A DNA stretch of 64,000 nt from an uncultured Candidatus Saccharibacteria bacterium (GTDB taxonomy: Bacteria > Patescibacteriota > Minisyncoccia > Phycocordibacterales > UBA12088). The stretch is from the NCBI GenBank assembly GCA_964411375.1, contig CAYPKR010000001.1, forward strand, positions 40,227 through 104,226. The letters are read 5' to 3'. The notes beneath the pieces are model-generated. The model saw only the letters and a list, made by a program, of their open reading frames with translations, ran no database searches and had not been told where the DNA came from. A program made the position numbers and the translations under genes. Shown here piece after piece: positions 19,441 through 44,410 of this stretch (position 1 is its first letter; the number at the start of each line of letters is the position of its first letter).

Positions 19441-19590
19441 GATTCTCTCCTAGGAGTAAGTTGTCAGTGTGCGTCTTCGGTCAGAGTATAGAAAATGAGG
19501 AAAAGCACAAGGATTTGGTCGCGACCCGAAAAACAGTATTTAGACACTGTTTTTCCAAAAAAAGGTTTCCCAAACCTTTTTCTTCCGGCC

Positions 19591-19733: not shown

Positions 19734-19745
19734 AGTCCTCCTATA

Positions 19746-20333: not shown

Positions 20334-20352
20334 AGTGGTGAGACTGTACCAC

Positions 20353-20390
20353 AAAGAAAAAGGAGGTGCAACGCGCTATGGTGCACCTCC
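20353..20390 (-). promoter_or_regulatory. hairpin plus U-run immediately 5-prime of rplS (terminator/attenuator-like)
   Basis: Minus-strand RNA GGAGGUGCACCAUAGCGCGUUGCACCUCCUUUUUCUUUG ends about 20 nt before the rplS start. The GGAGG is sequestered in the stem. Confidence 0.4.
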
Positions 20391-20412
20391 ATCCATGCCG
20401 AAAGATCTAGGC

Positions 20413-20643
20413 CTACGTTGTGGTAAGTGGCGTACCATACAACCCAGTACCATCAGGCTCGTCCGGTTTCCATTGGAGAAGAGGAAAAGAGGCTGCTTCG
20501 GGCTTTGGATGCGGAATCAATGTCCCGATAACCTGCCCATCAGCGATTAATGTAACCTCCTCTGTCAGAGCTATACCGCCACTAACTCGAGCAACAAGCG
20601 TGTCTAATCTGAGACAATGAGGGCCAATCTCGCCGTTCGCCAT
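20413..20643 (-). CDS. hypothetical small protein
   Basis: 76-aa ORF between rluD and rplS. No motif recognised. Confidence 0.3.
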   Translation of the reverse strand: MANGEIGPHCLRLDTLVARVSGGIALTEEVTLIADGQVIGTLIPHPKPEAASFPLLQWKPDEPDGTGLYGTPLTTT

Positions 20644-20685
20644 CGGAATTCCTCCGCATGAGTTCGAACCTCACAATACCATTCA

Positions 20686-21414
20686 CTACGCTTCATGCAA
20701 TTCGTTAAATTGGGTGAGCGCGTTTTGAAAATCTTCTGGAAGTGGTGCTTCGAATGTTCTCACTTCTCCGTCGGGGAGAGTAAGTGTGAGAGAACGCGCA
20801 TGAAGCGCGAGTCGTTCAAAGCCGAATGCAGTGGGCATGTTGGCTGCATAGAGTTTGTCGCACACGACCGGATGATTGATCGCTTTCATATGAACGCGAA
20901 TCTGATGCGTGCGTCCTGTTTTTGGTCTTGCTTCAATACATGAAAATCCTTTGATTGATTTAAGTACGGTGTATTCGGTAACCGCTTCGCGCATTTCTCC
21001 TTTTGCGCCACGCTGTGCCGACCATCTGCGGAAATCGCTTGCTGAACGACCGATCGGTCGATCGATTACTCCTTCCGTTTCTTTGAAGTTTCCGTATACG
21101 AATGCGTTGTAGATTTTCTTCGCTTCACGATTTTGAAATTGTGATTTAAGAAAAAGAAATGCGTCTTGGTTTTTTGCAATCACCATAACCCCTGATGTTT
21201 CGCGATCCAAGCGATGGACAATGCCCGGACGATCGATGACTTCTCCGCTTTGGAGTGTGAGTGGTTCGCCGACTCCTTTCATTTCAGGATGCGTCTCAGT
21301 TATCCAATCAACAAGTGTTCGCTCATCAGTACGGCCATCGGGATGTACGACCAGGCTGGCGGGTTTGTTGATAATAATGACGTTGGTGTTTTCGAAGAGG
21401 ATTGTGGGAGACAT
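20686..21414 (-). CDS. RluA-family pseudouridine synthase
   Basis: Catalytic motif GIVHRLDRETSGVMVIAKN and KIYNAFVYG. The upstream in-frame part of the ORF (to 21609) is unsupported. Confidence 0.85.
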   Translation of the reverse strand: MSPTILFENTNVIIINKPASLVVHPDGRTDERTLVDWITETHPEMKGVGEPLTLQSGEVIDRPGIVHRLDRETSGVMVIAKNQDAFLFLKSQFQNREAKKIYNAFVYGNFKETEGVIDRPIGRSASDFRRWSAQRGAKGEMREAVTEYTVLKSIKGFSCIEARPKTGRTHQIRVHMKAINHPVVCDKLYAANMPTAFGFERLALHARSLTLTLPDGEVRTFEAPLPEDFQNALTQFNELHEA

Positions 21415-21607
21415 GATGAGTGCACTATACATTGAAGCAGTGATTGCGGAAATAATCGTCGATGTGTATTGTGGCGCAAGTACATCATCTATAAGGAGGA
21501 ATGGCGTGAGTGAGTCTACCGAACCGCATGTCGATGGAAATGACTGGAATATCTTTGCCACATCGCCACAAGTGAGCAATCCTGAGCGATATTCCGATGT
21601 CGCACTC

Positions 21608-22069
21608 ATGAACTTGCTTTCGATGCATGTCAGCCAGCTTAATTCGGTTCGTCAGGCGATCTGGGCGAGATTCACGGCATTTCTAATCGGCAATTCCATT
21701 CTCTTTGCGTTTGCAGGAGGAGCGAATCGCCCCGCTGTGCAACAAGCCACTGGTACAATTTCTGGGGTAATCTTGTGCACCATATGGCTTCTGATGCTTC
21801 GACGGGATAAAAAGTTTTTCCTGTTTCTTATCGAGAGAGCCGCAAGATTCAGATTACTTGCCTTACCAGCGGCAGAAGCAAATCCTGCAAATATATTTCT
21901 CACACGACGAAGTCTTCAGTTTGGAGATTCAATTTATCGTCTGGCGTTTATGGTAGTGTGGATTTTTGTCACCCTCCACTTCATAGTTTTGTATCCAAGC
22001 GTTGAGGAATATATTCAAAAATGGGGAGCTGAGGCATACCAAGGAATATGCCGGCCCATACATTGCTGA
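21608..22069 (+). CDS. hypothetical membrane protein
   Basis: ORF 21221..22069 overlaps rluD antisense. A plausible start is the internal Met at 21608 (MNLLSMHV). The sequence is hydrophobic. Confidence 0.3.
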   Translation: MNLLSMHVSQLNSVRQAIWARFTAFLIGNSILFAFAGGANRPAVQQATGTISGVILCTIWLLMLRRDKKFFLFLIERAARFRLLALPAAEANPANIFLTRRSLQFGDSIYRLAFMVVWIFVTLHFIVLYPSVEEYIQKWGAEAYQGICRPIHC

Positions 22070-22373
22070 AATAGAATCGAGCCGTCGGGATTACCGACGG
22101 CTCTAATTATTAGGAAGATTGGTCTTCCTTTGGTTTTGGATATGTCCAACCATCTATGGTTGCCCATAGCATTATTATTACCAGGACCACAATGATGACC
22201 AAAAAAACCACCGGAAAATTCATTACAGATCTCCTCAGTCTGAGTGGAACCGATTACCCGCGCATTTGCGAGCAATTCTACCTGGGATTTTACCACAAAA
22301 ATTGGAATTTGCAATGGAGATTGTGTGTTGCGGGGTTTGGTCGCGATATTTAAAGACTTGATCCTTACAGGAT

Positions 22374-22431
22374 CAGTACACCTTGCGGATTTTTTCTTCG
22401 TCCTAGCGGACTCAAAAAAGTCTCGCAAGGT
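22374..22431. repeat. 58-nt direct repeat copy 1 (internal palindrome CCTTGCG...CGCAAGG), 3-prime of tRNA-Val
   Basis: CAGTACACCTTGCGGATTTTTTCTTCGTCCTAGCGGACTCAAAAAAGTCTCGCAAGGT is identical at 23010-23067. Confidence 0.9.
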
Positions 22432-22498
22432 TTTCAAGTCCCTCCGCAGAGTGCCCCGCACTCTGCTAGCGCACACTCTTCGCTCACTGTCGTTCGCT

Positions 22499-22574
22499 TG
22501 GTGCGCGCTGAGGGACTTGAACCCCCGACCTTCTCGGTGTAAACGAGTTGCTCTACCAACTGAGCTAAGCGCGC
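22499..22574 (-). tRNA. tRNA-Val (TAC), CCA encoded
   Basis: Reverse complement GCGCGCTTAGCTCAGTTGGTAGAGCAACTCGTTTACACCGAGAAGGTCGGGGGTTCAAGTCCCTCAGCGCGCACCA. Confidence 0.9.
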
Positions 22575-22683
22575 AAATTCGATTCTCGATACTTATCGCG
22601 ATTAAGTCGTTGGGTAAACGGCGAGGCCGCCTCCACCAATAACCTACGTGCGACATAAAAATTGAATGATTTTCAGTCTACAG

Positions 22684-22712
22684 AAAAGTAAGCGCCCCGT
22701 CCACCATTACAG
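22684..22712 (-). terminator. perfect hairpin GCCCCGTCCAC-CATTACA-GTGGACGGGGC about 165 nt downstream of tRNA-Leu(TAG)
   Basis: 11-bp perfect stem. T-rich on the minus-strand 3-prime side. Confidence 0.5.
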
Positions 22713-22879
22713 TGGACGGGGCTCGGATCAGCGTTGCTAATCGTCAAGCGGGTGGTATTGCAAAGGCGAGTCCACGGACGCCAAAACGCCGCTTCGTTCT
22801 CTCCCACCTATCCTACGCACTCGACGTGCGACACAGTCCTGGGTGGACAATATAGGAATTATTGAATTGCATCAAGTGT

Positions 22880-22964
22880 TGGTGCTGGGGAGAGGACTCG
22901 AACCTCCACGCCTTGCGGTGCCTGCTCCTAAGGCAGGTGCGTCTACCAATTTCGCCACCCCAGC
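22880..22964 (-). tRNA. tRNA-Leu (TAG), long variable arm, CCA encoded
   Basis: Reverse complement GCTGGGGTGGCGAAATTGGTAGACGCACCTGCCTTAGGAGCAGGCACCGCAAGGCGTGGAGGTTCGAGTCCTCTCCCCAGCACCA. Confidence 0.9.
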
Positions 22965-23009
22965 ATTTTGTAAATTGTAAGTCGGCAGGAGTTTCGAAGC
23001 TTACAGCTT

Positions 23010-23067
23010 CAGTACACCTTGCGGATTTTTTCTTCGTCCTAGCGGACTCAAAAAAGTCTCGCAAGGT
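23010..23067. repeat. 58-nt direct repeat copy 2, between tRNA-Arg(TCT) and tRNA-Leu(TAG)
   Basis: Identical to 22374-22431. Preceded by hairpin GAACAGTCC-CCC-GGACTGTTC (23082-23102), just as copy 1 is preceded by GCAGAGTG-CCCC-GCACTCTGC (22446-22466). Confidence 0.9.
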
Positions 23068-23127
23068 CTTCGAATCCTGACGAACAGTCCCCCGGACTGT
23101 TCTCCGGGGCAAAGCGCTTCGCGCTTG

Positions 23128-23199
23128 CGCCCCTGGCAGGATTCGAACCTACATCAACGCCTTAGAAGAGCGCTGCTCTATCCATTGAGCTACGGGGGC
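23128..23199 (-). tRNA. tRNA-Arg (TCT)
   Basis: Reverse complement GCCCCCGTAGCTCAATGGATAGAGCAGCGCTCTTCTAAGGCGTTGATGTAGGTTCGAATCCTGCCAGGGGCG. One acceptor-stem mismatch. CCA not encoded. Confidence 0.75.
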
Positions 23200-26665: not shown

Positions 26666-27173
26666 ATCGCAGTATGCCTAGTATTTTGAAATGATTCAAT
26701 TAAAAACGCCAGATGCGCGGCGCAGGCGAAGCCCGAAGCGAGTCGTATGAATAATACGACGAGCGAGGACTGGAGACTGCAACAAAGCAGGTGGCGCTTT
26801 TAATGAATCATCGATGCGTACAAATATGGAATCCAGAGGATTAGTGCGCCCAAAATAAAGGCGGCGGAAAGGAGGAGGGTCGTTTTCAGTATCTTTTTCA
26901 TAGATGATAATCCGAAGAATATCACACTTCACGCAAGAAACCTGTGGAAATGCGCGTTTCAATGGAAATTATGATGGACTTGCTGCAACCCTGATAATTC
27001 CATTGTCTTCTTGTTCACTAAACCCCTGGTTTACTTGGGTTCAAAGTTGCCAATCTGGCGGTGCAGGTGGGTTAAGTGCCCACCAGTGTCAATCACTGTA
27101 AGGGTTTTTGAGCAATTTTTCCACCTCACGTTTTGAGGCACGCGGGTCGGGCTAAGACTTTGAAATGTGACAA

Positions 27174-27210
27174 AAGTGACACCATTTGCACTTCTTTGGC
27201 GTGTCACTTT
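27174..27210 (-). terminator. hairpin AAAGTGACAC...GTGTCACTTT overlapping the stop codon of the NACHT gene
   Basis: 10-bp perfect arms 27174-27183 and 27201-27210. Stop TGA at 27204-27206 lies inside the right arm. Confidence 0.5.
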
Positions 27211-30200
27211 TTGCCTCGCACTCCGGAGCGTCGACGGACAGCGTGCGACGAAGTCTTCTTTTTTGGTCTTTTTGCAGTATTTTTGACAGTCTTGCGCTTT
27301 GGCGCTGTTGGGCTGTTATAGCAATCGAAGGACATGACCGAGACCTTATTGATTTTCTGAAACGCCTCTTGAATCGTCGAGAGATTTTTAGCGTCCGTGT
27401 TCTTAACTACGAGGAAAATGCCATGCGAGGCACCGTACCCTTGCATGTACGCATCGCGCATCGTTACGTACGAGTCGGACTTCTCAATCGTCTCGACCCG
27501 AGGACTTTGAATGTCACTATTGGAGGTTAGCTTAACTTCAATGACGATCGGACCCGTAAAGCCATATCTCACGAGCAGGTCTGTGCGCTTCTCATTAAGG
27601 AGCTGTGCTTCGCGGGTGATCTCAACCTGAAAACCACGTTTGAGGAGAATGTTTTCAATTTGCATCTTGAGAGTCTTTTGAACCAGCTTTTCGTCATCAC
27701 GACGTTCGCCCGGAGACTTTTTCCTGAGAAGAATATCGTATGCACCCTCTCCTTCGATCCAGCGACGAAGGTCAGTCTCCAGCGCATCCTGAACCTGTCG
27801 GAACAAATCTTCGGAGTTGCGGACTTTCTTGTCACTAAATTCACGAGCATCGTTGTACTTTGTGATGGCTTCGGCAATAGTCTGCGGTTTGCCCAAGTAA
27901 CCAAGATACGACTTTCTTAGATGCGCGAGTCGTCCCGCGAACCAATTCACGCCATCTTGTTCGGACACATTCGCAACTGCAGTCTCCAATTGTTGGAGTG
28001 AATCATACGATCGGCCCTCTTTAAGGTTATCGAAGTAGGCGTAGACGACCTCCCACATGTATTGACCGTATGCATGGAATTGTGGACCGCGGGCCCATAT
28101 CTTAAAGGCCTCATTCAACATATCGAGATAGTCTTGCTCGAATCCCGAATATTTGAGTTCCATCAAGGGCTTGGCAAACGTCTTGCTGTGCGAAATCTCG
28201 TCCTCAAAATCTCCGACGCTATGAACGCGTGCGCCATAGACCTGAGTGAATGGACCGGCTCGTTCAACAATTTGCTTGAGACGCCACCGTATCGCATCAG
28301 CATCGGCATGCGACGTAATGAGTAATCCGCTTGCGATATGCGCGAGCTTTTGGTCACCTGCATCCTTGCTGTCTTTATACTTCTCAAACACCTCCTTCAA
28401 AAAAGAAGCATCTGGAGCCAGCGAATCAAATACAGGCAATGCTTCTTCGCGCACATACTTTTCAATCTGCTCTTCCATAATGAGACCCTTGAGTATGGGA
28501 GCGGCTGCCGTGATGTGGTATTGCTTGGCAGCTTCCACAAAACTCTGCGGCATATGACGCCAGAGATCCGAACTCTTGTTCGTGTACACCTCGAATACTC
28601 TCGTCATCTCCTCTGGCTTGATGTCCTTCACGAGGTCGAAGATGGTGCGTAAATCCTCGTTATACGCGAACGGAATGAGGTTAATGATTTGCTGACGATA
28701 CGGTGATGTATCGAACCCAAGCCGTTTTGCGGCAACAAGTGCATCTCTGAAAATATAGATCGCGGATGCAGTCGTGTATGTTTTTGATCCGTCATGTTGT
28801 GCCGTTATTGTAAGATCAAACTTCCCAGGATCCATGAATTTGAAGACCGTGCCCGACAGCAACTCAAATATCCGCTTTTTGTCATCATTCGAGAGTAGCG
28901 GATCGAGCATATCTGCGTGGTCCGTGTAGAAATCAAAGACATTGGTGCTGTATTTGCCTTCTTCAGGCTCAAGCAAAACTCTAAACTCCTGAAGTAAGCC
29001 CTGACCTCGATCGTCTTGTGGATTCGCCGCGGCTTTTGCCTGTCCCTCCTCCCATTTTTGGTAATCATCCGCAAGGAGCGATCGGCAAGCCTCATAGAGT
29101 TCATTCGCGTTCTTCCTCCTCGAGAACTTGATACGCGTCATTACGGTAAACGCTGAGTACTTCTCTCCCGTATTGAGAAGTGCCTGCACGAAGGGTTGCA
29201 CGTCTTCCAGTTTGATCGTACGGGCAAAGAAACTGTGCGCGAAGTAGAGACCGGTTTTTCCGTCCTCGCTTTCCTTAATGCGACGCACCATATCCATGAC
29301 AAAGCTAGGATCACCTTCGCTCAGAAAATCCCAGAGCCCTTGGAGAAAGACCGATTGCTCGGTGTTATACGCAACACTGTGGTGCACCGATTTCACGAGA
29401 ACTCCTTTAGATAGTTCACGAATCTCGTTATCAGCAACCGCCTTGATACGATCAACAATCACATGATCTTTATCTCGGAAGATCCTCGTGTCGTCGAGGA
29501 ACTCGCGTCGGAAGTTTTCATCATCAATAAAGCGCCTCAAGAAAGCCACCACCGACTCGCGCTTTTTGAATTCAAACAAGCCATAGCGTCCGTGGAAATC
29601 GTCCCGCGCTACTGCTTCGAATACGTGCTGGAGCGTTTTCGGATGATCAGGATCGAGCGCAATACATGCCGAGAGGAATGCCTGCGATACCAATTCATCG
29701 CCCTGCGTCTGGGTGAGCACATCAATGACAGAAGGGTCGCCTAAATCTTCCAGCGCCTCCAGCGCGTGGCGTTGGAGCACGCCGTTTTCATCCTTATCTT
29801 GCGCATACGCGATGAGCTTTTCGCGCCAGTATGGTTTATCAACCGATATTTTATTGCGGAGCAAGTACGCGACCACGTAGCAAATGTTGCCGAGCGGCAC
29901 ATATCGAAACGCATCTTTCTGCGACTCAGCCTCTGTTACCCAAACTTTGAGTTGAGACTCTAGCGAAGGGTCGTAAAAATCCGGGAGAGCCTGCGTAATC
30001 TGACCAGATATCCATTGTCGCGTGCGTCGGTGGTATTCAATGACATCCTTAAAGAGGGCTATGCGGAATGCAGCAGGAACATTGCGCGGATCAACACGAC
30101 TGAGGAAGTGAAAGAAATTTTCATCGAGTACCTTGAACTTGTTACCGCGCAACCCTGAAAACTCGACAAACTGCTCAAGCAGATTGGGCTGCATGTCCAC

Positions 30201-31301
30201 GAGGAACGTAAGCGCGTTAAACCATGTGGGATAGATTTCTTTTACATTCGGATCAACGGCGAATGCAAACGCGGCGCGATTCGGGTCTGCGAAGCGCGTA
30301 ATTTCTTTCGCTGCGAGGTATTCTTGAAATTCTGTGTTCTCAAACTCAATCTTGTCGAGATTTTCATGACTCACTTTGAGCAAGGAATACTCATAGAAAA
30401 CATCTATGCCAATGCTCGAGAGTGCGGCGGTTTTTAGATCGGATTTCAGATCATCGAAAAACGTCATAAGCTCATCTTGCGTAATGACATTCGTTTGGTA
30501 GATCTCCATTCCAAGCGCGAGCTTCTCAAGCACGCGCTTGGTGATGGCTCGCTTGTCCTCATTCAGCTTTTTCTCCTCGAGTTCGAGCTTCTTGTAGATG
30601 AAGTGCTCGAACAGCTCATTGCGGGAGACCTTTGCCGCAGCATCCAAACCCTTCACTTTCAAGTAGTCATCGAGATAAAAGAGATATCGCGGAATCTGAA
30701 TCACGAGCATGCGGTGGCTGAACGACATCATTCGGTTGAGAAGTGTGTCGACATCGCGTTCCGCTCGTCCGGCAGAAATAAGGTACTCGCGTATCTGCGA
30801 GCGCGTAAAAGGTGAGATACTTATGAACCGAAATTCAGGAAAAGAATTCGCGTAGCGGCTGACGAAGACCCAGCGTCCCGAAATGAAAAGCTGAAGTTCA
30901 GGATGCGCTTTTGAAATCTCCTCGATTTTTTGTAACACCGCAGGGAACGTGCTCGACTTTACCTCATCGAGCGCGTCGAGTAACAGGGCTTGCGGCTTTT
31001 GCTCTGCGCCAAGAGCGCTATCTATTTGCTGCAGGGCATCATTGTCTCGTAAGCTAACGAGAACAGTGGTCGTGCCTTGAGCTTCCAAATGCTTATGGAT
31101 TTTTTGCAGAAGAAGGGTTTTGCCGATTCCTGGCTCCCCAACAATTAGGCTGCGGTTACCTTGGGCGAGCCCGTCGATGGCGGTTATTTCCTCATCTTCG
31201 AAGATAGCCAGGCCACCGAATTTATCAAAAAACTCCTTCGCTTCGGCGAAGGTGGTATGCACTTTCGTAATGGGCTGGATATAGATGTCTTTGGGGTTCA
31301 T
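27204..31301 (-). CDS. giant NACHT-type STAND P-loop NTPase with C-terminal PD-(D/E)xK-like motif and Lys/Arg-rich tail (candidate antiphage protein)
   Basis: ORF 27204..31367. The likely start is Met 31301 (MNPKDIYIQ), because the first Met abuts the divergent gene. Walker A LIVGEPGIGKTLLL. NACHT-style Walker B ALLLDALDEV. More than 1000 aa of helical-looking sequence. Near the C-terminus KRTDLLVRYGFTGPIVIEVK fits D-x14-E-x-K. It ends KRKTVKNTAKRPKKKTSSHAVRRRSGVRGKK. Confidence 0.8.
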   Translation of the reverse strand: MNPKDIYIQPITKVHTTFAEAKEFFDKFGGLAIFEDEEITAIDGLAQGNRSLIVGEPGIGKTLLLQKIHKHLEAQGTTTVLVSLRDNDALQQIDSALGAEQKPQALLLDALDEVKSSTFPAVLQKIEEISKAHPELQLFISGRWVFVSRYANSFPEFRFISISPFTRSQIREYLISAGRAERDVDTLLNRMMSFSHRMLVIQIPRYLFYLDDYLKVKGLDAAAKVSRNELFEHFIYKKLELEEKKLNEDKRAITKRVLEKLALGMEIYQTNVITQDELMTFFDDLKSDLKTAALSSIGIDVFYEYSLLKVSHENLDKIEFENTEFQEYLAAKEITRFADPNRAAFAFAVDPNVKEIYPTWFNALTFLVDMQPNLLEQFVEFSGLRGNKFKVLDENFFHFLSRVDPRNVPAAFRIALFKDVIEYHRRTRQWISGQITQALPDFYDPSLESQLKVWVTEAESQKDAFRYVPLGNICYVVAYLLRNKISVDKPYWREKLIAYAQDKDENGVLQRHALEALEDLGDPSVIDVLTQTQGDELVSQAFLSACIALDPDHPKTLQHVFEAVARDDFHGRYGLFEFKKRESVVAFLRRFIDDENFRREFLDDTRIFRDKDHVIVDRIKAVADNEIRELSKGVLVKSVHHSVAYNTEQSVFLQGLWDFLSEGDPSFVMDMVRRIKESEDGKTGLYFAHSFFARTIKLEDVQPFVQALLNTGEKYSAFTVMTRIKFSRRKNANELYEACRSLLADDYQKWEEGQAKAAANPQDDRGQGLLQEFRVLLEPEEGKYSTNVFDFYTDHADMLDPLLSNDDKKRIFELLSGTVFKFMDPGKFDLTITAQHDGSKTYTTASAIYIFRDALVAAKRLGFDTSPYRQQIINLIPFAYNEDLRTIFDLVKDIKPEEMTRVFEVYTNKSSDLWRHMPQSFVEAAKQYHITAAAPILKGLIMEEQIEKYVREEALPVFDSLAPDASFLKEVFEKYKDSKDAGDQKLAHIASGLLITSHADADAIRWRLKQIVERAGPFTQVYGARVHSVGDFEDEISHSKTFAKPLMELKYSGFEQDYLDMLNEAFKIWARGPQFHAYGQYMWEVVYAYFDNLKEGRSYDSLQQLETAVANVSEQDGVNWFAGRLAHLRKSYLGYLGKPQTIAEAITKYNDAREFSDKKVRNSEDLFRQVQDALETDLRRWIEGEGAYDILLRKKSPGERRDDEKLVQKTLKMQIENILLKRGFQVEITREAQLLNEKRTDLLVRYGFTGPIVIEVKLTSNSDIQSPRVETIEKSDSYVTMRDAYMQGYGASHGIFLVVKNTDAKNLSTIQEAFQKINKVSVMSFDCYNSPTAPKRKTVKNTAKRPKKKTSSHAVRRRSGVRGKK

Positions 31302-31369
31302 GCAGGTACATTTTCTCACTTTGGACGGTGAGCAGCAAACAAAGGCATATCTTGCTAAAATCGTCATAT

Positions 31370-31999
31370 ATGAGCCAATTCTCCAGACACACCATCGCTG
31401 AATACCTTCCTGAAATTAAGGGCATTTGTGCCTCTGTTGAAGTGGAAATGGCAAGACATGATCTGGACGGTCTCCTCCAGCTGCAACCCCTCCCCGCCAT
31501 TGAGCAGTACGGGCGCTCAAAGATTGTCTACGCCATGATGCTTGTTGGCGAATGGCTTAAGGACACCCCTTTCAGCACGCACTCGACCTATCTTAAGAAA
31601 AACGACAAAGGTGCAAGATGGGCAGACATGCTCAAAATCCTGAACGCCAAAATCCTTGAGTATCAGAATGACGTGCCCGTGATCGTTCTCAATCTATCCC
31701 GAAGCGGACATATCACGCGCACGGTCGACGGTAGTACGTTCGAGCATGATTTTGAAAGCGACGGCTTCAAAAAAGAAATACTTGTTATGCTTCACGAGAA
31801 CGACGGTTATGTGCAAACAAAAGATTTGAAACAACGCACTGGCTCAAAGAGCACTGAATCTGTGGCAAAAACGATTGCAGCTATAAACAACGTACTGAGA
31901 GCAAAACTTCAGCTTCCTGTAAAAGAAAAAGTAATTGGGAGCAAACGTGCTTCTGGGTATCGTCTCAACCCGCTGTACAACATAGTGATCAAAAATTGA
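31370..31999 (+). CDS. winged-helix DNA-binding protein (OmpR/CadC-type C-terminal domain) with unknown N-terminal domain
   Basis: C-terminal SVAKTIAAINNVLRAKLQLPVKEKVIGSKRASGYRLN resembles the trans_reg_C wing (..LR.KL......I.T.RG.GYRL). Divergent from the NACHT gene by about 68 bp. Start could be later (31448). Confidence 0.45.
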   Translation: MSQFSRHTIAEYLPEIKGICASVEVEMARHDLDGLLQLQPLPAIEQYGRSKIVYAMMLVGEWLKDTPFSTHSTYLKKNDKGARWADMLKILNAKILEYQNDVPVIVLNLSRSGHITRTVDGSTFEHDFESDGFKKEILVMLHENDGYVQTKDLKQRTGSKSTESVAKTIAAINNVLRAKLQLPVKEKVIGSKRASGYRLNPLYNIVIKN

Positions 32000-32119
32000 T
32001 ACTTCCCACATCCGGAGTGGAAAAGTGGCTCTATCGTCCCGAAGCTACGGGATTTTTTGCTGATGCCATTCCAGATGCGTTCCATGTAAATATGGTGCCG
32101 CTTGCGCCATTGTTATTAC

Positions 32120-33394
32120 ATGGCTACAAAATTGCGATGGCACACCGACGAACGCAGAGTTAGCGACCTTGTGCCAAATATTAAAAATCCGCGCAAGATG
32201 TCCCCGAAGCAGATTGAGGACTTAAAGCGTTCGCTTAAGAAATTTGACCTCGTCGAGCTACCGGTCGTCGATACAGACAACAAAGTCATCGCGGGACATC
32301 AGCGGCTCATGGTTCTCAAACTCCTTACCCGCGAAAATGATCTCATTCCTGTACGCGTCCCAAATCGCAAACTTACCCAAAAAGAGTACGACCAGTACCT
32401 CCTTGGGAGTAACCGCATCCATGGTGATTGGGACTGGCAGGCGCTTGCGGACAATTTCGATATTGAGACGCTCCTCTCCTCCGGCTTCGACGACATCGAC
32501 ATGGTGCATATTTTTGACGACCTTGAAGTTGAGGATGACGAGTTCGATGTCGAAAAAGAACTCGAGAAAATCAAGAAACCGAAGTCTAAGACCGGCGAGC
32601 TGTATCAACTCGGTAACCACAGAATCATATGTGGCGACAGCACTGACCCCGGAGTTCTGAAAAAGTTGATGGGTGACAAGAAAGCAAGCTCAATTCTTCA
32701 AGACCCACCATACAACATCTCCCTCGACTACAACAAAGGCATCGGCGGCAAGCGCAACTACGGCGGTACAGTTGACGACGCGAAGCCCGACAAGGAGTAC
32801 AAAAAGTTTCTGAAATCGGCTCTTGAGAATGCACTGTCAGTCTTAGAGAAAGACGCACACGTATTCACATACTGCGATCAGAAGTACATCTGGCTCTTGC
32901 AGACCCTCTACGCCGAGCTCGGTATCGCTAACAAGCGCATGTGTTTGTGGGTAAAGAATAATTCCACTCCCACGCCGCAAGTTGCGTTCAACAAGCAGTA
33001 CGAGCCGTGCGTATATGGCACGGTTGGCAAACCGTATCTGAGCGAGAAAGTACTCAATCTCTCGGAAGTGCTCAACAAAGAAATCGGCACGGGCAACCGC
33101 ACACTGGAGGACATCTACGACATGATCGACATTTGGATGGTTAAACGCCTCAACGGCACAAACTATCAGCACCCTACCGAAAAGCCCCCGATGCTCCACG
33201 AGAAAGCCCTGCGCCGTTGCACGAAGCCTGGCAACATCGTGCTGGATTGCTTCGGCGGTTCAGGATCTCTTTTGATTGCATGCGAACAACTTAAGAGAAG
33301 TGCGTACTTGGTCGAACGCGAGCCCATATTCGTTGACTTGGTAATACGTCGCTATGAAAAACTCACTGGCAACAAAGCGAAAAAGCTCAACTAG
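32120..33394 (+). CDS. ParB-like nuclease domain fused to N6/N4 DNA methyltransferase (phage-type)
   Basis: N-terminal sequence pattern resembling ParB-N (NPRKMSPKQIEDLKRSLKKFDLVELPVV). Methyltransferase motifs LQDPPYNIS (motif IV), HPTEKP and DCFGGSGS (motif I). Confidence 0.85.
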   Translation: MATKLRWHTDERRVSDLVPNIKNPRKMSPKQIEDLKRSLKKFDLVELPVVDTDNKVIAGHQRLMVLKLLTRENDLIPVRVPNRKLTQKEYDQYLLGSNRIHGDWDWQALADNFDIETLLSSGFDDIDMVHIFDDLEVEDDEFDVEKELEKIKKPKSKTGELYQLGNHRIICGDSTDPGVLKKLMGDKKASSILQDPPYNISLDYNKGIGGKRNYGGTVDDAKPDKEYKKFLKSALENALSVLEKDAHVFTYCDQKYIWLLQTLYAELGIANKRMCLWVKNNSTPTPQVAFNKQYEPCVYGTVGKPYLSEKVLNLSEVLNKEIGTGNRTLEDIYDMIDIWMVKRLNGTNYQHPTEKPPMLHEKALRRCTKPGNIVLDCFGGSGSLLIACEQLKRSAYLVEREPIFVDLVIRRYEKLTGNKAKKLN

Positions 33395-34118
33395 GTGCTG
33401 GCAGCTTGGCGACCATCGCCTAGTGCAGGGTGACTCCACCGATCCCGAGATCGTGCGGATGGTCATGGGCATCGAGAAAGCGAATCTCATCTGCACTGAC
33501 CCACCATACGGCGTGGCAGTCGCAGAATCAAAACGCAACTTCCGCACGCTCTCAAAAGACAAGAACATCGCCAACGATCACTTGCAGTCTGATGATGAAT
33601 ATCACCAGTTCTCGCGAGCGTGGCTGGAAGCCATCGCTCCGCACCTCGCCAAGAAAAACAGCGTGTACATCTTTAACGCGGACAAAATGGTGTGGTCTTT
33701 GCGCGATGGTATGGTCGATGCGGGATTCAAGGTGGCACAACTTCTCCTCTGGGTGAAGCAACAATCGGTTATCGGACGCTTGGACTATGCCCCGCAGCAC
33801 GAACTCATCGTGTATGGGTGGTTCGGTACGCACCACTTTAGACGCTCTAAAGATAAGTCGGTGTTGTTCTACCCACGTCCGAACAAGTCTAAGCTCCACC
33901 CGACGACAAAGCCGCTCGGGCTAGTACGTCGCCTTATTCTCAACAGCACGAATATCGGTGACGTTGTCTTTGACGGCTTCCTCGGGAGCGGCACCACTCT
34001 CTTGGCATGTGAACAAACGAAACGCCGATGTTTTGGCATTGAACTGGATTCCGAGTACTGCCAGACCATCATCAAACGCTGGGAAAACATGACCGGCAAA
34101 AAAGCAAAACAAATATGA
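33354..34118 (+). CDS. N6/N4 DNA methyltransferase (second, ParB-less)
   Basis: CTDPPYGV, HPTTKP and DGFLGSGTT motifs. Overlaps the upstream gene by 41 nt. Confidence 0.85.
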   Translation: MKNSLATKRKSSTRCWQLGDHRLVQGDSTDPEIVRMVMGIEKANLICTDPPYGVAVAESKRNFRTLSKDKNIANDHLQSDDEYHQFSRAWLEAIAPHLAKKNSVYIFNADKMVWSLRDGMVDAGFKVAQLLLWVKQQSVIGRLDYAPQHELIVYGWFGTHHFRRSKDKSVLFYPRPNKSKLHPTTKPLGLVRRLILNSTNIGDVVFDGFLGSGTTLLACEQTKRRCFGIELDSEYCQTIIKRWENMTGKKAKQI

Positions 34119-34531
34119 AAAAGACCGATCAAACCAAAGAAGCGCTTCTCGAACAGCTACGAAAAACACCTATCGTGCAGATTGCATGCGAGAAGCTCGG
34201 TATCAGCCGCTGGACCTTCTACCGCTGGAAGAAGGAAGATGCTGACTTTGCCAAGAAAGTCGACGAGGCACTTCTGGAAGGATGCCTGCTGGTAAACGAC
34301 CTCGCGGAATCACAGCTCATCTCCGCCATCAAGGATCGCAATATGCACGCGGTCATGGCATGGCTCAAACACCACCATCCTTCGTACAAAACCAGAGTGG
34401 AGATCGAAGGAAAACTTGAGACGGTGCAGGAAATGACCGACGAACAAAAAGAGTTGGTGCAAAAAGCTTTAGAGTTAGCAAATATTCAGCTAAAAGAACA
34501 TGGAAACGATCAGGGACACTGCGACGTTTGA
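34115..34531 (+). CDS. phage terminase small subunit-like HTH protein
   Basis: HTH IVQIACEKLGISRWTFYRWKK, typical of TerS-like HTH_23/terminase_2 proteins. Immediately upstream of TerL. Confidence 0.6.
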   Translation: MKKTDQTKEALLEQLRKTPIVQIACEKLGISRWTFYRWKKEDADFAKKVDEALLEGCLLVNDLAESQLISAIKDRNMHAVMAWLKHHHPSYKTRVEIEGKLETVQEMTDEQKELVQKALELANIQLKEHGNDQGHCDV

Positions 34532-35996
34532 GGCCATTGCGCAGGATCGTCTCGTGCGGCGTACGGTGACGCGCGAGAGTCACCTCATGTTTTTCTACGT
34601 GTATTTCTCCCACTACGTCACGTATCCAATTGCTGAATTTCAGAAGGACATCTTTCGTATCACCGAGGATCAAAGCAACAAACTCGCGGTCATTGTGGCA
34701 TTTCGTGGATCCGGTAAGTCAACCCTCGTTACCTTTTCATATTCCCTCTGGGCCATGCTCGGCGTTCAACAGAAGAAATTCGTACTCATTATTTGCCAAA
34801 CGCAAACCCAAGCCAAGCAACATCTCATTAACCTCAAGCGGGAGCTGGAGAGTAATATGCTGTTGCGTAACGACCTCGGACCCTTTCAGGAAGAGAACGG
34901 TGAATGGGGTGCTTCCGCTTTAGTGTTCCCACAACTGAAGGCTAAGATCATGGCCGTCTCAACTGAGCAGAGTATCCGCGGCCTCCGTCACAACCAGCAC
35001 CGTCCCGACCTCATTATCTGCGACGACCTTGAGGATATGGCGTCAGTAAAAACATATGAGAATCGTCAGAAGATATACAACTGGCTCTGCGGCGAAGTGA
35101 TGCCGCTCGGAGATCGCAGTACTCGGTTTGTAGTGGTGGGCAACCTCCTTCACGAGGACTCGTTGGTCATGCGGCTACGGAGAGACATTGTCGAAGGACA
35201 GCGCAATGGCACTTTCAAGATTTTCCCTCTAATCACCAGTGACGGAGCGATCGCCTGGCCGGGCAAATATCCGACACCGGAGGCTGTTGCCGAGGAAAGG
35301 ATGAAAAGCGGTAATGAGTATGCGTGGCAGCGAGAGTATCTCCTCAACATTATTCCTGATGAGGATCAGGTCATTCAGAAAGAATGGATCCATTACTATG
35401 ATGCCCTGCCCACTCGGCGCGATACCTACCATGGCATCTTTACGGGAGTTGATCTGGCAATTTCTCAAAAAGAAACTGCGGACTATACCGCCATAGTGAG
35501 CGGACTCATTAGCCACGACGAGAATTTCTGCGTGTATATTCTTCCCAACATGGTGAACCGGCGCATGAACTTTCCGGAGACAATCAAACAACTCAAAGAG
35601 ATTAATGCTGCGAACAAGAAAATGTACTCATCGCATATTTTGGTCGAGGAGGTCGGCTATCAAAAGGCGGTAATCGATCAGCTTGCGCATGATTCTCTGA
35701 ATGTCGAAGGCGTCAAAATCAGCACCGATAAGCGCTCGCGTCTTATATCCATCTCCGCCATGATTCAAAGTGGCAAGATAAAGTTCCCTCGGCATGGCGC
35801 GGAAGCTCTCATACGTCAGATTGTCGGCTTCGGAGTTGAGCGACATGACGATCTTGTGGATGCGTTTACACTCCTTGCCCATCATGCTATTCAATTCGAC
35901 CGAGAGGCTCCTCAATTCTTAGTTATAGACCTCACTCCAAACAGATGGGACGATGGGGAGGGTTGGTTTCCGCTGAGTCTCAACACTCGTTTTTAA
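34500..35996 (+). CDS. phage terminase large subunit
   Basis: Walker A VAFRGSGKSTLV. ATPase and C-terminal nuclease-type architecture. DHGAEALIRQIVGF...DDLVDAF resembles the TerL nuclease C-terminus. Confidence 0.85.
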   Translation: METIRDTATFEAIAQDRLVRRTVTRESHLMFFYVYFSHYVTYPIAEFQKDIFRITEDQSNKLAVIVAFRGSGKSTLVTFSYSLWAMLGVQQKKFVLIICQTQTQAKQHLINLKRELESNMLLRNDLGPFQEENGEWGASALVFPQLKAKIMAVSTEQSIRGLRHNQHRPDLIICDDLEDMASVKTYENRQKIYNWLCGEVMPLGDRSTRFVVVGNLLHEDSLVMRLRRDIVEGQRNGTFKIFPLITSDGAIAWPGKYPTPEAVAEERMKSGNEYAWQREYLLNIIPDEDQVIQKEWIHYYDALPTRRDTYHGIFTGVDLAISQKETADYTAIVSGLISHDENFCVYILPNMVNRRMNFPETIKQLKEINAANKKMYSSHILVEEVGYQKAVIDQLAHDSLNVEGVKISTDKRSRLISISAMIQSGKIKFPRHGAEALIRQIVGFGVERHDDLVDAFTLLAHHAIQFDREAPQFLVIDLTPNRWDDGEGWFPLSLNTRF

Positions 35997-36045
35997 GTTA
36001 CCAACTCCGCATATATAGGCCTACGTGTCATCCCTTGAGGAATGA
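35995..36045 (+). repeat. imperfect direct repeat copy A (AAGTTACCAACTCC...TAGGCCTACGTGTCATCCCTTGAGG), starting in the TerL stop codon
   Basis: 14/14 identity plus about 20/26 in the second block with copy B at 43009-43075. A third 10-mer GGTTACCAAC occurs at 37138. Confidence 0.6.
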
Positions 36046-36186
36046 AGTCTGTGGACGTTGGAAATCTGAGGTACGTGCAGAAACTCTTGGGTATCTGTAT
36101 ACAGCTATTGCGAAAGATCGAGAAAGAATCAGCAAAGCCCAAGAACCAGCCATCGCTCCCGTTTCGAAATAGTCGAAAACGAAAAC

Positions 36187-37065
36187 CTAGAAGCCGGTAG
36201 CAGCCGTCGTAATATCTGTGCCGTATCCGAGATCCTTGAATACCATGGTGTAGCCGCTTGAGCCTGTGGGTATCTCAAAGCCAAGGCTGCCTGTGACGGT
36301 TGCATGAGGCTGAAGCGTGAACGTTGGCATTTTCGCATCGGTGAGCACCATGGTGTATGTGGCTCCGGCAGCGTCTTTGAGGTAGAAGAAGAATTCACTG
36401 CACTGTGTTTCTCCACCATCGAGCGCATGACACGTGAGAGGTTTGTCGCCATTGTTGGTGATTGAGACATCGACACGAACTCTCTCGTGTCCTTCTTGAG
36501 GAGTCGAGCCATACTTTTCAGTGTATGGACGTTTGTACCCAGTTACCTTGAGAGAAATGTTCTCGAAGTTCTTTACCTGCGAGATAACGTTGGCGATACT
36601 CGAGCGGAAACACCAGCTGGTGCCAGATTTCTCGAGTGTCATGAGTTGAGTTTCGCTTTTACCGTCAGAGGTATTTTCAACGAGCTGAACCGATGCACCA
36701 TTGTTTTCTTCCAGAACACTCTTGATTTCAAAGTTGGTAAGACGCGTTGCACCCCATATGTTGGTGAGAGCTTTTACATATTCAGTCTTGGTTGCACCCG
36801 TCCTGTCTTGCGGACAGACGAGGTCGTACATCTTGGCGAAATCGCGCTGCTGCGTGTACCGCTCTACCTTGGTTGCGAAGGCAGAAGCGGATGACTGTTC
36901 ACTGTCGGTCAGCTCGCCATCTTGCACCTCTCTGGCAGCAACTTCAGAGTTAGTGGTATCGGTAACTTGATCAGTACGTGAGGCGCTATTGGACCACCAA
37001 TACACACCTCCGCCAAGAACCATAATTGCAACAATTACTGCTGCTATCCAATGGGCTTTATCCAT
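36187..37065 (-). CDS. membrane-anchored DUF4352-like protein
   Basis: N-terminal TM (WIAAVIVAIMVLGGGVYWW), then Ser/Thr/Glu-rich linker, then a beta-rich C-terminal domain (VRVDVSITNNGDKPL). Confidence 0.55.
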   Translation of the reverse strand: MDKAHWIAAVIVAIMVLGGGVYWWSNSASRTDQVTDTTNSEVAAREVQDGELTDSEQSSASAFATKVERYTQQRDFAKMYDLVCPQDRTGATKTEYVKALTNIWGATRLTNFEIKSVLEENNGASVQLVENTSDGKSETQLMTLEKSGTSWCFRSSIANVISQVKNFENISLKVTGYKRPYTEKYGSTPQEGHERVRVDVSITNNGDKPLTCHALDGGETQCSEFFFYLKDAAGATYTMVLTDAKMPTFTLQPHATVTGSLGFEIPTGSSGYTMVFKDLGYGTDITTAATGF

Positions 37066-37229
37066 AGTTTAAAGGGTTTTTATTGACTAATAACGGACCC
37101 TAGTGTTCCTAGCTTAGTTTCGGAGAGTTGCGAAGGGGGTTACCAACAGCGCCCTTTTGAGGCGCAATTTGAGCATAACATAAATATCTAAAGTTTGGAT
37201 ATTCAGTTCTTGGATAGACGCTTAATGGT

Positions 37230-37448
37230 ATGGGAAAGTCTATCCATACCAAGGAGTACAAAATATTTGTTGAGCGTTTGAGAAAGGCACGACTTGAAGC
37301 AGGTCTTACGCAGGTAGAAGCCGCAAAGAAATTAGGTCGCCCTCAATCTCATATCTCCAACGTTGAGACCGGACAGCAACGGGTAGATATCGTGGAGCTT
37401 AAACGGTTCGCGAACCTCTACGGAAAGAGCGTCAGCTATTTCCTCTAA
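37230..37448 (+). CDS. XRE-family HTH transcriptional regulator
   Basis: LRKARLEAGLTQVEAAKKLGRPQSHISNVETGQQ matches HTH_3. Confidence 0.8.
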   Translation: MGKSIHTKEYKIFVERLRKARLEAGLTQVEAAKKLGRPQSHISNVETGQQRVDIVELKRFANLYGKSVSYFL

Positions 37449-37469
37449 ACAACCGCCCCTCTAAGGGGC

Positions 37470-38000
37470 CTAGGCCTCTTTGATTGAAAGCCGTGGCAAT
37501 GCACTAAGCGCACGGATGCTCTCAAATACCGCAACAAGAGCGGTTGTGTACAACACATCGCCAACAAGCATATTTCTTAAAAATGGAAGTCCCAGTTCAT
37601 ACGAGTATAGAAGTCCAGAAATGGACTTCTCATACCATGGAGAGAACGCCCACACCGCACCGTTGGTAATTAAGAAGAAGATAAGTGAGGCTCCGATTAT
37701 TGATAATCCGACGGGCAATAAAGTTCGATATCTTGCAGCAACAAAACTAAGAAGACCAATCAAGACAAATGATCCGTACACTGAGAACAATATTTTCCAA
37801 TCGTAGAATCCGATGAGCACATCAGAGAGAAGAAGCATGAGTATTGGCAGTAGAATCGCCCATTTCCTGCCGAGGTACAAACTCCCAGTAAATGCTATTG
37901 CTGTGATCGGCGTCATATTCGGCGCATGAGGTAAAAGTCGCACGACAATACCGAAGAGAATAAGGATGCATGTTGTTATGATGATATTGTTCTTATTCAT
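37470..38000 (-). CDS. integral membrane protein, possibly ECF-type S component
   Basis: 176 aa, 5-6 TM. Adjacent to DUF4430 and a B12 adenosyltransferase. Confidence 0.4.
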   Translation of the reverse strand: MNKNNIIITTCILILFGIVVRLLPHAPNMTPITAIAFTGSLYLGRKWAILLPILMLLLSDVLIGFYDWKILFSVYGSFVLIGLLSFVAARYRTLLPVGLSIIGASLIFFLITNGAVWAFSPWYEKSISGLLYSYELGLPFLRNMLVGDVLYTTALVAVFESIRALSALPRLSIKEA

Positions 38001-38007
38001 AATTTGA

Positions 38008-38451: not shown

Positions 38452-38464
38452 AATTTTATAGATA

Positions 38465-43008: not shown

Positions 43009-43075
43009 AAGTTACCAACTCCAGGGGTCTCGGGACGCTCTGGACTCCTAGGGCGGTCTGCGTCATTCCTTGTGT
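43009..43075 (+). repeat. imperfect direct repeat copy B (AAGTTACCAACTCC...TAGGGCGGTCTGCGTCATTCCTTGTG), 62 bp upstream of the serine recombinase
   Basis: See copy A at 35995-36045. Contains a 26-nt insertion relative to copy A. Confidence 0.6.
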
Positions 43076-44410
43076 TGTATGGAAAACATAGCAACATCAA
43101 GGGTGAACCTCGGCGTGAGGCAGGCTGGGCCAGCACCCATTATCAAGTACTGCCTCTATGCGAGAAAAAGTACGGAGTCAGAGGAACGCCAAATCCTCTC
43201 AATAGACAGTCAGATTAAGGAGATGATTCAGCTCGCCGAGCGCGAGGGCCTTGAGATAGTCGAAATCAAGAGAGAATCACATTCGGCGAAAGAGACAGGA
43301 CAACGTCCAGTCTTCAACGAAATTATCGACGAAATCCGGCAAGGTAAATTCACAGGAATACTCACTTGGGCACCAGACCGTATCAGTAGAAATGCTGGAG
43401 ACCTCGGAAAAATAGTCGACCTCATGGACGCCAAGCTCTTGATAGAGATACGCACCTTCGGGCAACGATTTACGAATAGCCCGAGTGAGAAATTCTTACT
43501 GATGATATTAGGAAGTCAGGCGAAACTTGAGAATGATAACCGAGGTATCAACGTAAAGCGTGGATTGCGAACGAGAGTTGAGATGGGATTGTGGCCTGGA
43601 GTCGCACCGCTTGGATACCTGAATCAAAAGTTGATGGACAAGAAGTGTCAGATTGCGGTCGATACAGCACGGGCACCGATAGTGAAGAAAATGTTCGAGA
43701 AGGTCGCCTACGAACATTACTCAGGCAGAAAGATTTACAACTGGTTAAAGTTTGAACTGAACTTTCATACACGAGGAAATAAGCCACTGACACTCAGTGG
43801 TGTGTATCGTATGCTCGACAATCCGTTCTACTACGGACCATTTGAATATCCACGAGATAGCGGAAACTGGTATCAAGGAAGACATACGCCACTCATCACT
43901 CAAGAGTTATTTGAGAAAGCTCAAGCACAACTAAAGCGTGACAAGATAGTGCGCGAGAATAAAGAGTTCGCCTTCACTAAATTATTTACCTGCGGATACT
44001 GTGGGTCAGGGATATCAGCGGAAGAAAAATGGAAACCGCTCAAAGATGGAACGTCAGCACACTATATTTACTACGGCTGTAGTCGAGCGAGAGACCGTAA
44101 CTGCAAAAATAAATACATTCGAGAAGAAGAACTCATTGACAATCTTCTCAAGATTATGGATGTAGTGAACATCAACGAGCTTGGCATGAGACAGAAGCTT
44201 GAAGATGAAATACGGCGATTCAACAAATTGCAGAAGATAGTGAACGGAAAGAGTGGTAACTCACTAGTGGAAGAAGACGACGTAAACATCAGACAATATG
44301 CTAAGTACCTACTCAAAGAAGGGAGTACATCAGACAAGCGAGAATTACTGGCAAATCTACGAAGCAGACTGAACTACAAAGACAAAAAGATAACGATGAT
44401 TGAGGAGTAG
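43070..44410 (+). CDS. large serine recombinase (resolvase/invertase N-domain, recombinase domain, zinc ribbon)
   Basis: Catalytic YARKSTESEERQ(S), ILTWAPDRISRN, and C-terminal CGYCGS...YYGCSRARDRNCKNK. Confidence 0.9.
   Translation: MCCMENIATSRVNLGVRQAGPAPIIKYCLYARKSTESEERQILSIDSQIKEMIQLAEREGLEIVEIKRESHSAKETGQRPVFNEIIDEIRQGKFTGILTWAPDRISRNAGDLGKIVDLMDAKLLIEIRTFGQRFTNSPSEKFLLMILGSQAKLENDNRGINVKRGLRTRVEMGLWPGVAPLGYLNQKLMDKKCQIAVDTARAPIVKKMFEKVAYEHYSGRKIYNWLKFELNFHTRGNKPLTLSGVYRMLDNPFYYGPFEYPRDSGNWYQGRHTPLITQELFEKAQAQLKRDKIVRENKEFAFTKLFTCGYCGSGISAEEKWKPLKDGTSAHYIYYGCSRARDRNCKNKYIREEELIDNLLKIMDVVNINELGMRQKLEDEIRRFNKLQKIVNGKSGNSLVEEDDVNIRQYAKYLLKEGSTSDKRELLANLRSRLNYKDKKITMIEE

Follow-up and report, generated by a model that had tools for sequence, protein, structure and literature searches.

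STAND nucleoside triphosphatases (NTPases) of the NACHT clade are defined by the Walker B signature D[GAS]hDE (Kibby et al., PMC12169576). C-terminal effectors are a rarer, recognised arrangement in bNACHT proteins and are predicted to fold back to the usual N-terminal position (Kibby et al., PMC12169576). The STAND sensor mechanism is taken here from Avs3 and Avs4, Avs2 (PMC13601566), Avs7-21 (PMC13581612) and bNACHT25 (PMC12169576). A 2026 survey lists 589 STAND clades, 198 of which are defence-associated, and this space is already densely mapped. Here, a large gene was analysed in a stretch of 64,000 nucleotides (the window) from an uncultured Candidatus Saccharibacteria bacterium (contig CAYPKR010000001.1, positions 40,227 to 104,226). 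The gene probably encodes a single-polypeptide antiphage sensor of the NACHT clade, with a C-terminal PD-(D/E)xK domain as its candidate DNase effector. It belongs to an uncharacterised family (tentatively Pfam DUF8371) of NACHT-solenoid-nuclease proteins concentrated in Patescibacteria. The family is not a new category, and STAND sensor-nucleases, C-terminal effectors and the similarly built HyoA and EruA proteins are already on record. If confirmed, it would represent an NLR-type immune sensor from Patescibacteria (Candidate Phyla Radiation). A 4.1-kb gene on a 514-kb contig is a large investment.

The start MNPKD (31301) coincides with the start in homologs and in public gene calls and gives a protein of 1365 amino acids (Table 1), the length proposed by the original prediction, which had been made from the DNA letters. 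The Walker A motif, placed by the same prediction about 55 amino acids from the start, was found at residues 52-65, where GEPGIGKT (residues 55-62) matches the P-loop pattern GxxxxGK[ST]. Walker B had also been recognised as NACHT-like, and D109-A110-L111-D112-E113 matches the signature D[GAS]hDE. Among 120 homologs, G55, D109 and K61 are each kept in 119, with R as the exception at K61; D112, E113 and R143 are kept in all 120, and position 110 is A or G. The Pfam profiles NACHT (28.7 bits, gathering score 26.7) and NPHP3_N (31.4 bits, gathering score 24.8) give marginal matches, mainly in the P-loop region. Only 45 residues precede the P-loop domain, and an N-terminal effector is absent.

Structures were modelled with AlphaFold2 in two parts split at residues 1100-1130. 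In the model of residues 1-1130, built from 65 homologs (mean predicted local distance difference test score, pLDDT, 87.5), a P-loop domain is followed by a helical domain, a winged-helix region and then a near-all-helical solenoid. When this model was compared with the PDB using Foldseek, the first matches were NLRP14, NLRC4, NLRP7, NLRP2, NOD2, NLRP3 and NLRP9, with E values of 5e-8 to 1e-5 (best 4.7e-8). Almost all of the top 30 matches are NLR NACHT proteins, and the HEAT solenoids of karyopherins and CAND1 come after them. Because the Pfam scores, the D[GAS]hDE signature and the NLR fold matches point the same way, the N-terminal module is assigned to the NACHT-clade STAND NTPases on sequence and model evidence. 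Animal NLRs (NLRC4, NOD2, NLRP3) share the order of nucleotide-binding, helical and winged-helix domains followed by a repeat solenoid, at about 10% sequence identity. They differ in having leucine-rich repeat sensors and N-terminal CARD or PYD adaptors, and they carry no fused nuclease.

The long helical region noted in the original prediction corresponds to a predicted HEAT/ARM-like alpha-solenoid, the presumed sensor, which in the model is all-helical except for one beta-hairpin. Pfam HEAT_2 matches weakly at residues 489-535. A family profile searched against PDB sequences retrieved designed HEAT repeats at about positions 503-600 and generic P-loops, and nothing else; with the plain sequence search included, PDB matches were limited to these two kinds.

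The C-terminal model (pLDDT 85.8, mostly above 90 inside the nuclease domain) shows the alpha-beta-beta-beta-alpha-beta core order of the PD-(D/E)xK superfamily. The conserved residues occupy the canonical positions, with E1204 in the first helix, D1241 at the beginning of strand 2 and E1255-x-K1257 within strand 3. The structural matches of this part include BamHI, BstYI, Can2, NucS and McrC. No variation is seen at E1204, E1231, D1241, E1255 and K1257 among 65 aligned sequences; E1231, E1255 and K1257 are kept in 120 of 120 homologs, and the catalytic residues are also invariant in relatives from other phyla that are only 25-39% identical. The domain is therefore placed in the PD-(D/E)xK superfamily as a predicted nuclease. 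The proposed motif was present, with a spacing of D-x13-E-x-K rather than the x14 first read, and the folds expected at the two ends of the protein were both recovered with AlphaFold and Foldseek. The predicted layout is thus a NACHT module (residues ~46-400), a HEAT/ARM-like solenoid (401-1160), a PD-(D/E)xK nuclease (1161-1330) and a basic tail.

Model confidence is low in the last ~35 residues, which are rich in Lys and Arg, as had been noted. Tails in the family measure 27 amino acids at the median and contain 37% K/R and 4% D/E; their composition is kept while their sequence is not. A basic tail peculiar to the window protein was considered and rejected, the composition being family-wide; in some distant branches the tail is absent. 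In one homolog (P0012; locus L003, 10001-14356) the same nuclease domain is followed by a HAD-family-phosphatase-like extension of ~120 amino acids (residues ~1331-1451) in place of the tail, including a weak match to DNA 3'-phosphatases.

The C-terminal domain and tail might instead form a DNA-binding or sensing module, making the protein a DNA-anchored scaffold or regulator with its output elsewhere, comparable to the 'hybrid' C-terminus of Kibby et al. These authors note that small C-terminal domains may tether bNACHT proteins to endogenous components, and the basic tail does suggest nucleic-acid binding. The protein contains no other effector domain, a point that can be read in this direction; yet with 45 residues before the P-loop domain there is no N-terminal effector either to provide an output. 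Invariance of the metal-binding and catalytic residues (E, D, ExK) across phyla would be unexpected for a degenerate domain, and we consider a purely DNA-binding role very unlikely.

Compared with bNACHT proteins such as bNACHT25, which has an Mrr-like restriction endonuclease (REase) effector (PMC12169576), the window protein shares the NACHT signature, a HEAT-like sensor, an effector predicted here to have the REase fold, and the single-gene organization. It has the tripartite make-up of bNACHT proteins in the order NACHT, sensor, effector. It differs in that its effector is C-terminal, with ~45 residues before the NTPase. At the sequence level the window protein matched no bNACHT member tested, and Patescibacteria are not mentioned in the bNACHT study (PMC12169576). 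As a compact family of fixed architecture, these proteins would be useful for testing the fold-back prediction that Kibby et al. made for C-terminal effectors.

The NCBIfam models NF058534 (HyoA, 'NACHT domain-containing antiphage protein') and NF058535 (EruA) have 1430 and 1318 positions, similar in length to the window protein. Their matches are colinear, at profile positions 12-100 and 35-150 in the N-terminal part and 1140-1242 and 1244-1383 in the C-terminal part. Residues 1158-1305 correspond to HyoA 1249-1383, and residues 36-133 to EruA 12-100. Because both models match at both ends, this layout exists in families labelled antiphage by NCBI. The original prediction was right that the putative effector is C-terminal, but the inverted domain order is not new; it is a recognised minority arrangement, shared with HyoA, EruA and the C-terminal effectors of Kibby et al. 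Membership in HyoA or EruA was rejected for the window protein and for every relative tested (30-52 bits). Judged by their sequences, HyoA and EruA are separate families that are only remotely related.

Avs proteins (Avs2-4, Avs7-21; Gao et al.; PMC13601566, PMC13581612) follow the same logic, with a helical-repeat sensor of a conserved phage protein, an oligomerising STAND NTPase and nuclease-type effectors, and are likewise tied to defence islands and prophages. They belong, however, to other STAND clades and have N-terminal effectors. No PADLOC Avs model matched the window protein, and no Avs structure was among the 50 Foldseek matches listed. Upx (PDB 9wuf; PMC13099982, PMC13601566) is also a large single polypeptide with a C-terminal PD-(D/E)xK core, and it senses the phage terminase. 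In contrast to the window protein, Upx lacks a STAND/NACHT NTPase and has a second, N-terminal nuclease, and the likeness lies in the generic nuclease fold and the single-protein logic.

At least 461 relatives were retrieved from 5.8 billion clusters. The best 120 are 1210-1451 amino acids long and 44-100% identical to the window protein, with 88-100% query coverage (nearly all at 93% or more). Their source labels are hypothetical protein or the misnomers RadA, SAR1 GTPase and guanylate kinase. Where an organism is named, it is mostly Patescibacteria, Pacebacteria, Gracilibacteria or Saccharibacteria; the few Dormibacteraeota and Nitrosopumilus labels are probable mis-binnings. Nitrospirae, Gammaproteobacteria and Bacteroidota have distant full-length relatives (25-39% identity), among them one in the cultured Chitinophaga arvensicola DSM 3695 (Bacteroidota), and all of these relatives contain the nuclease core E...QK...RE...D...ExK. 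The precomputed Pfam label DUF8371 (PF28130) covers part of the protein; it is weak for the window protein and unmarked for the homolog P0035.

When the nuclease domain alone was searched exhaustively with HMMER, 308 of 1.84 billion representatives matched. Essentially every complete carrier has 1310-1400 amino acids and the domain at its extreme C-terminus; the nuclease domain and this architecture thus go together. Mean identity to the window protein is 66% in the helical/winged-helix part, which is better conserved than any other region, 58% in the nuclease, 54% in the P-loop domain and 46-52% in the solenoid. The family-specific motif EFQEYLAAKE had no match in 2.9 million viral contigs, and one relative at 28% identity was found in viral contigs. 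Alignment scans of genome and viral contigs were dominated by the generic P-loop pattern, and no prevalence was drawn from them.

A match on the Arcobacter plasmid CP134847.1 (133 kb; L013) was rejected as a HyoA and is a split or two-gene distant relative. It occupies the adjacent genes 5480-7957 (825 amino acids, the NACHT part) and 7993-9525 (510 amino acids, with the nuclease domain at the end), near dGTPase, DUF3800 and AAA ATPase genes. By its sequence this could be either a natural two-gene version or a disrupted gene.

The loci of homologs (numbered from L001) place the gene in varied surroundings. Defence and mobile genes were found at L005 (type I restriction-modification (R-M) genes, a helix-turn-helix (HTH) gene, a resolvase and PDC-S53 at 1329 bits), at L007 (Gabija with GajA at 648 bits and GajB at 406 bits, a type II REase with a C5 methyltransferase, a serine recombinase and a transposase), at L019 (PDC-S06, 870 bits), at L022 (an HKD-Snf2 helicase and a type IIG enzyme) and at L020 (a Dsr2-like protein). 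Such neighbours recur among homologs, though not universally, and these are raw occurrences without a background rate. At 101 loci, all flanking open reading frames (ORFs) within 4 kb were clustered; many of the contigs have short flanks, so the counts are lower bounds. No partner gene is common to all 101 loci. The commonest neighbours are ParB-methyltransferases (9 loci), TerS-like proteins (7), type I specificity subunits (4) and serine recombinases (3). Since there is no universal partner and the contexts differ, the pattern is that of a self-contained accessory gene moving with mobile DNA, not of a housekeeping gene. At L035, L038, L062 and L115, two unannotated ORF families (~303 and ~220 amino acids) stand together directly upstream on the same strand; the two could form an accessory pair specific to one lineage.

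A housekeeping or regulatory STAND protein of Patescibacteria, acting for example in DNA repair or transcription control, would suit the window gene's flank of RuvX, a tRNA-binding protein and PilM/N/O-like genes, the ordinary neighbours that alone are seen at L008 and L003, and the conservation of the family over its full length. Neighbourhoods differ even among close relatives, however, and the gene repeatedly adjoins R-M, Gabija and PDC systems, recombinases and transposases. Its spread across unrelated phyla is patchy, and a gene universal to so large a phylum should occupy far more than 308 representative clusters. A housekeeping role is accordingly most improbable.

The neighbour survey also bears on whether the protein could be the nuclease arm of an R-M-like pair, with the ParB-N6/N4 methyltransferase(s) marking self DNA and, as in NTP-dependent restriction enzymes, an NTPase-driven nuclease cutting DNA that is unmodified (or modified). 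The ParB-methyltransferase is the most frequent neighbour, always upstream and divergent in its 9 of 101 loci, and no cognate REase lies near the window methyltransferases. Strict co-occurrence would be expected of an obligatory partner, but ~90% of the loci, many with short flanks, have no such methyltransferase within 4 kb, and the long loci L003, L008 and L012 have none. ParB-fused methyltransferases before terminase genes are typical orphan phage methylases, and the NTPase is a NACHT switch rather than a translocase like McrB or a type I/III motor. We therefore give an R-M pairing very little credence.

The antiphage sensor reading, which we hold to be probable, starts from the computed folds, from motifs that are intact and invariant, from an architecture that stays fixed without any partner gene, and from a mobile or defence-linked context that changes between loci. 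By analogy with Avs3/Avs4 and bNACHT25, we infer the trigger, oligomerisation, DNA cleavage and defence phenotype as follows. In the resting state the NACHT module would be monomeric and ADP-locked. The solenoid may bind a phage protein, or a host protein perturbed by phage, and binding would lead to nucleotide exchange and oligomerisation through the NACHT module. The C-terminal nuclease domains, presumably inactive as monomers, would be joined into active dimers or tetramers. The assembled nucleases could then cut DNA indiscriminately, with the basic tail serving as a non-specific DNA clamp, and phage replication would stop, probably at the cost of the cell (abortive infection).

Several results weigh against this reading. 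PADLOC v2 and PHROGs do not recognise the protein, and PADLOC gave only mad8 (P-loop) and a weak HEAT-ARM match. Its scores against HyoA (43.7 bits) and EruA (37.5 bits) are far below the cut-offs of 1200 and 1000. No primary literature for the names HyoA and EruA was found, including in the 2026 STAND survey, and the antiphage label is NCBI's. The literature searched contains no experiment on the family and names no defence function for it. PADLOC found no second complete defence system in the window island. L003, L008 and L012 have no recognisable defence neighbours. Finally, conservation of the solenoid (46-52%) is only a little below that of the NTPase and nuclease domains (54-58%), which gives no strong sign of arms-race diversification.

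Table 1. Features of the NACHT-nuclease gene and its surroundings in the window.
Feature	Coordinates	Strand	Residues	Remarks
Longest ORF	27204..31367	-		1387 amino acids counted from first ATG
Complete coding sequence	27204..31301	-		1365 amino acids plus stop; likely true start MNPKD at 31301
NACHT nucleotide-binding domain	30807..31166	-	46-165	five-stranded P-loop core
Walker A, LIVGEPGIGKTLLL	31107-31148	-	52-65	
Walker B, ALLLDALDEV	30960-30989	-	105-114	
Sensor-1-like invariant R143	within 30867-30887	-	143	in NACHT nucleotide-binding domain
Helical domain and winged-helix part of NACHT module	30102..30806	-	166-400	mean 66% identity
EFQEYLAAKE	30303-30332	-		near-invariant; within helical/winged-helix part
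Alpha-solenoid, presumed sensor	27822..30101	-	401-1160	~760 amino acids, HEAT/ARM-like
HEAT-repeat match	29502-29837	-	about 489-600	
Predicted PD-(D/E)xK domain	27312..27821	-	1161-1330	restriction-endonuclease fold
D1241-x13-E1255-x-K1257 motif, DLLVRYGFTGPIVIEVK	27531-27581	-	1241-1257	
E1204	27690-27692	-	1204	additional invariant acidic residue
E1231	within 27609-27614	-	1231	additional invariant acidic residue
Lys/Arg-rich tail	27207..27311	-	1331-1365	15 of 35 K/R; probably disordered
Conserved non-coding hairpin and motif, GTGTCACTTTTGTCAC	27160..27206	-		GTGACAC-N17-GTGTCAC TTTT GTCAC; core 27167-27182; 3' of stop
Divergent gene	31370..31999	+		209 amino acids; kept in L001/L002 (76% identity)
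Phage-like operon, co-travelling	32102..35996	+		methyltransferases and terminases
ParB_N-N6/N4 methyltransferase	32102-33394	+		operon member
Second methyltransferase	33354-34118	+		operon member
Small terminase (TerS)	34115-34531	+		operon member
Large terminase (TerL)	34500-35996	+		operon member
Large serine recombinase	43070..44410	+		53-68% amino acid identity to L007, L010, L011, L041, L045 and L099 recombinases
tRNA-Ser	44519-44606	-		after serine recombinase

The window island is a mobile or prophage-like remnant, and its methyltransferases look like phage-type orphans. It contains the features first proposed for it, namely two N6/N4 methyltransferases, the small and large terminase subunits, a serine recombinase and tRNA-Ser (Table 1). 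The divergent neighbour is likewise present; its description as a winged-helix regulator goes further than the single sub-threshold HTH_11 match (E 0.025), from which an HTH regulator is plausible. In L001 and L002 the NACHT protein is 81% identical to that of the window, and the block in common with the window is only 9.7 kb long (27160-36900), stopping 44 bp past the NACHT stop. L001 and L002 are 99.8% identical to each other and then diverge 148 bp after the stop.

The same set of genes recurs in several lineages. In the window, L001/L002, L010, L011 and L103, the NACHT gene is divergent to a small gene that is followed by the ParB-methyltransferase, TerS and TerL (TerL not in L010), and a serine recombinase closes the operon in the window, L010 and L011. 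L045 and L099 have the order methyltransferase, TerS, recombinase and then a convergent NACHT gene; in L099 the recombinase stop lies ~45 bp from the NACHT stop. L041 and L007 show the same recombinase-NACHT pairing. Each layout can be derived from the other by circular permutation of a single gene ring. The module proteins share 46-68% amino acid identity, in step with the divergence of the NACHT protein. Between the window and L001, identity is 89.6% for TerL and 88.8% for the ParB-methyltransferase, versus 81% for the NACHT protein. TerL is intact, no capsid, portal or tail genes lie near the module, and no close TerL relative was found in viral contigs. Module genes are present in ~10-15% of the loci sampled without bias.

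On the 3' side of the NACHT stop is a conserved DNA motif, GT[CA]ACTTTTGTCAC, with its inverted partner GTGACAC in front of it. Its general form across loci is GTGACAC-N17-GTGT(C/A)AC TTTT GTCAC TTTT. Copies are found in L001 (14092-14105), L002 (12059-12072), L011 (14165-14178), L045 (7181-7194) and L091 (11-24), in lineages whose NACHT proteins are only 46-81% identical. The distance to the stop is ~75 nt or less in the window, L001/L002 and L011 and ~600 nt in L045; the only copy in L091 is at the contig end, ~9.6 kb away from the gene on its 3' side. No further matches occur in the 1.14 Mb of sequence fetched, where ~0.7 would be expected by chance, and no partner copy was found near the recombinase ends. 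The motif looks like a terminator, although its sequence conservation appears too high for a terminator alone. It could be a protein-binding site, such as an operator, a pac site or an att arm.

These observations bear on the possibility that a mobile element uses the protein as a weapon or for its own maintenance. As cargo of a capsid-less, satellite-like element it would serve inter-element conflict (sensing a helper or competing phage and destroying DNA), addiction or exclusion. The recurrence of ParB-methyltransferase, TerS, TerL and recombinase in the lineages named above at NACHT-like divergence, the permuted layouts, the better conservation of TerL and the ParB-methyltransferase than of the NACHT protein between the window and L001, the motif after the NACHT stop and the end of the common block 44 bp past it all speak for this. 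Many homologs, however, including the Bacteroidota branch, lack the module, which is limited to the small proportion of unbiased loci given above, and no family member was found in the 2.9 million viral contigs, nor a close TerL relative in viral contigs. We regard this explanation as unlikely, with some chance of being right; it differs from host antiphage defence mostly in the beneficiary and not in the mechanism.

The module suggests a capsid-less, terminase-bearing integrative element, which is a lead and not a result. In a more specific form that we put forward as a speculation, with a correspondingly low expectation, the NACHT-nuclease would be the signature cargo of undescribed small (~9-17 kb) integrative elements of Patescibacteria, carrying a serine recombinase, a ParB-methyltransferase and TerS/TerL and no capsid. 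Such elements would be satellite-like and hijack helper virions, the motif would be their cis site (att, pac or operator), and the sensor would act in satellite-versus-phage or phage-versus-phage conflict. To our knowledge, Patescibacteria have no known satellites and hardly any defence systems with experimental support. If true, this would mean a satellite-like carrier together with a NACHT sensor in an episymbiotic phylum.

A direct repeat (18 of 22 positions) was observed in the window between 27127-27148 (CACGTTTTGAGGCACGCGGGTC) and 44451-44472 (CAACTTTTTAGGCACTCGGGTC), the latter just before tRNA-Ser. The two copies enclose 17.3 kb, reaching from the 3' end of the NACHT gene to that of the recombinase gene. 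In a 19-base comparison, its score of 16/19 was reached by 1 of 200 shuffles. A search for flanking repeats in L010 and L011 gave nothing above chance. Because the window repeat is not reproduced in these two loci, no element boundaries are claimed.

Between the terminase operon and the recombinase, the region 36187-42995 encodes DUF4352, DUF6580, a PduO-type cobalamin adenosyltransferase, a class II (B12-dependent) ribonucleotide reductase and a multicopper oxidase. These metabolic genes are not seen at that place in L011, where TerL is directly followed by the recombinase; in the window lineage they may therefore have been inserted later, or they may be cargo. Past tRNA-Ser, 44689-46386 encodes a Pif1-family helicase with a C-terminal HTH_40 domain and partial PADLOC matches to PDC-S68 and RecD-like proteins (~60 bits). 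Farther out are housekeeping genes for RuvA, Mur ligase, PolA, RuvB and TyrRS. Five tRNA genes (His, Leu-GAG, Val, Leu-TAG and Arg-TCT) lie within 5 kb at 18075-23199 on the reverse strand, a cluster that fits a compact, streamlined genome.

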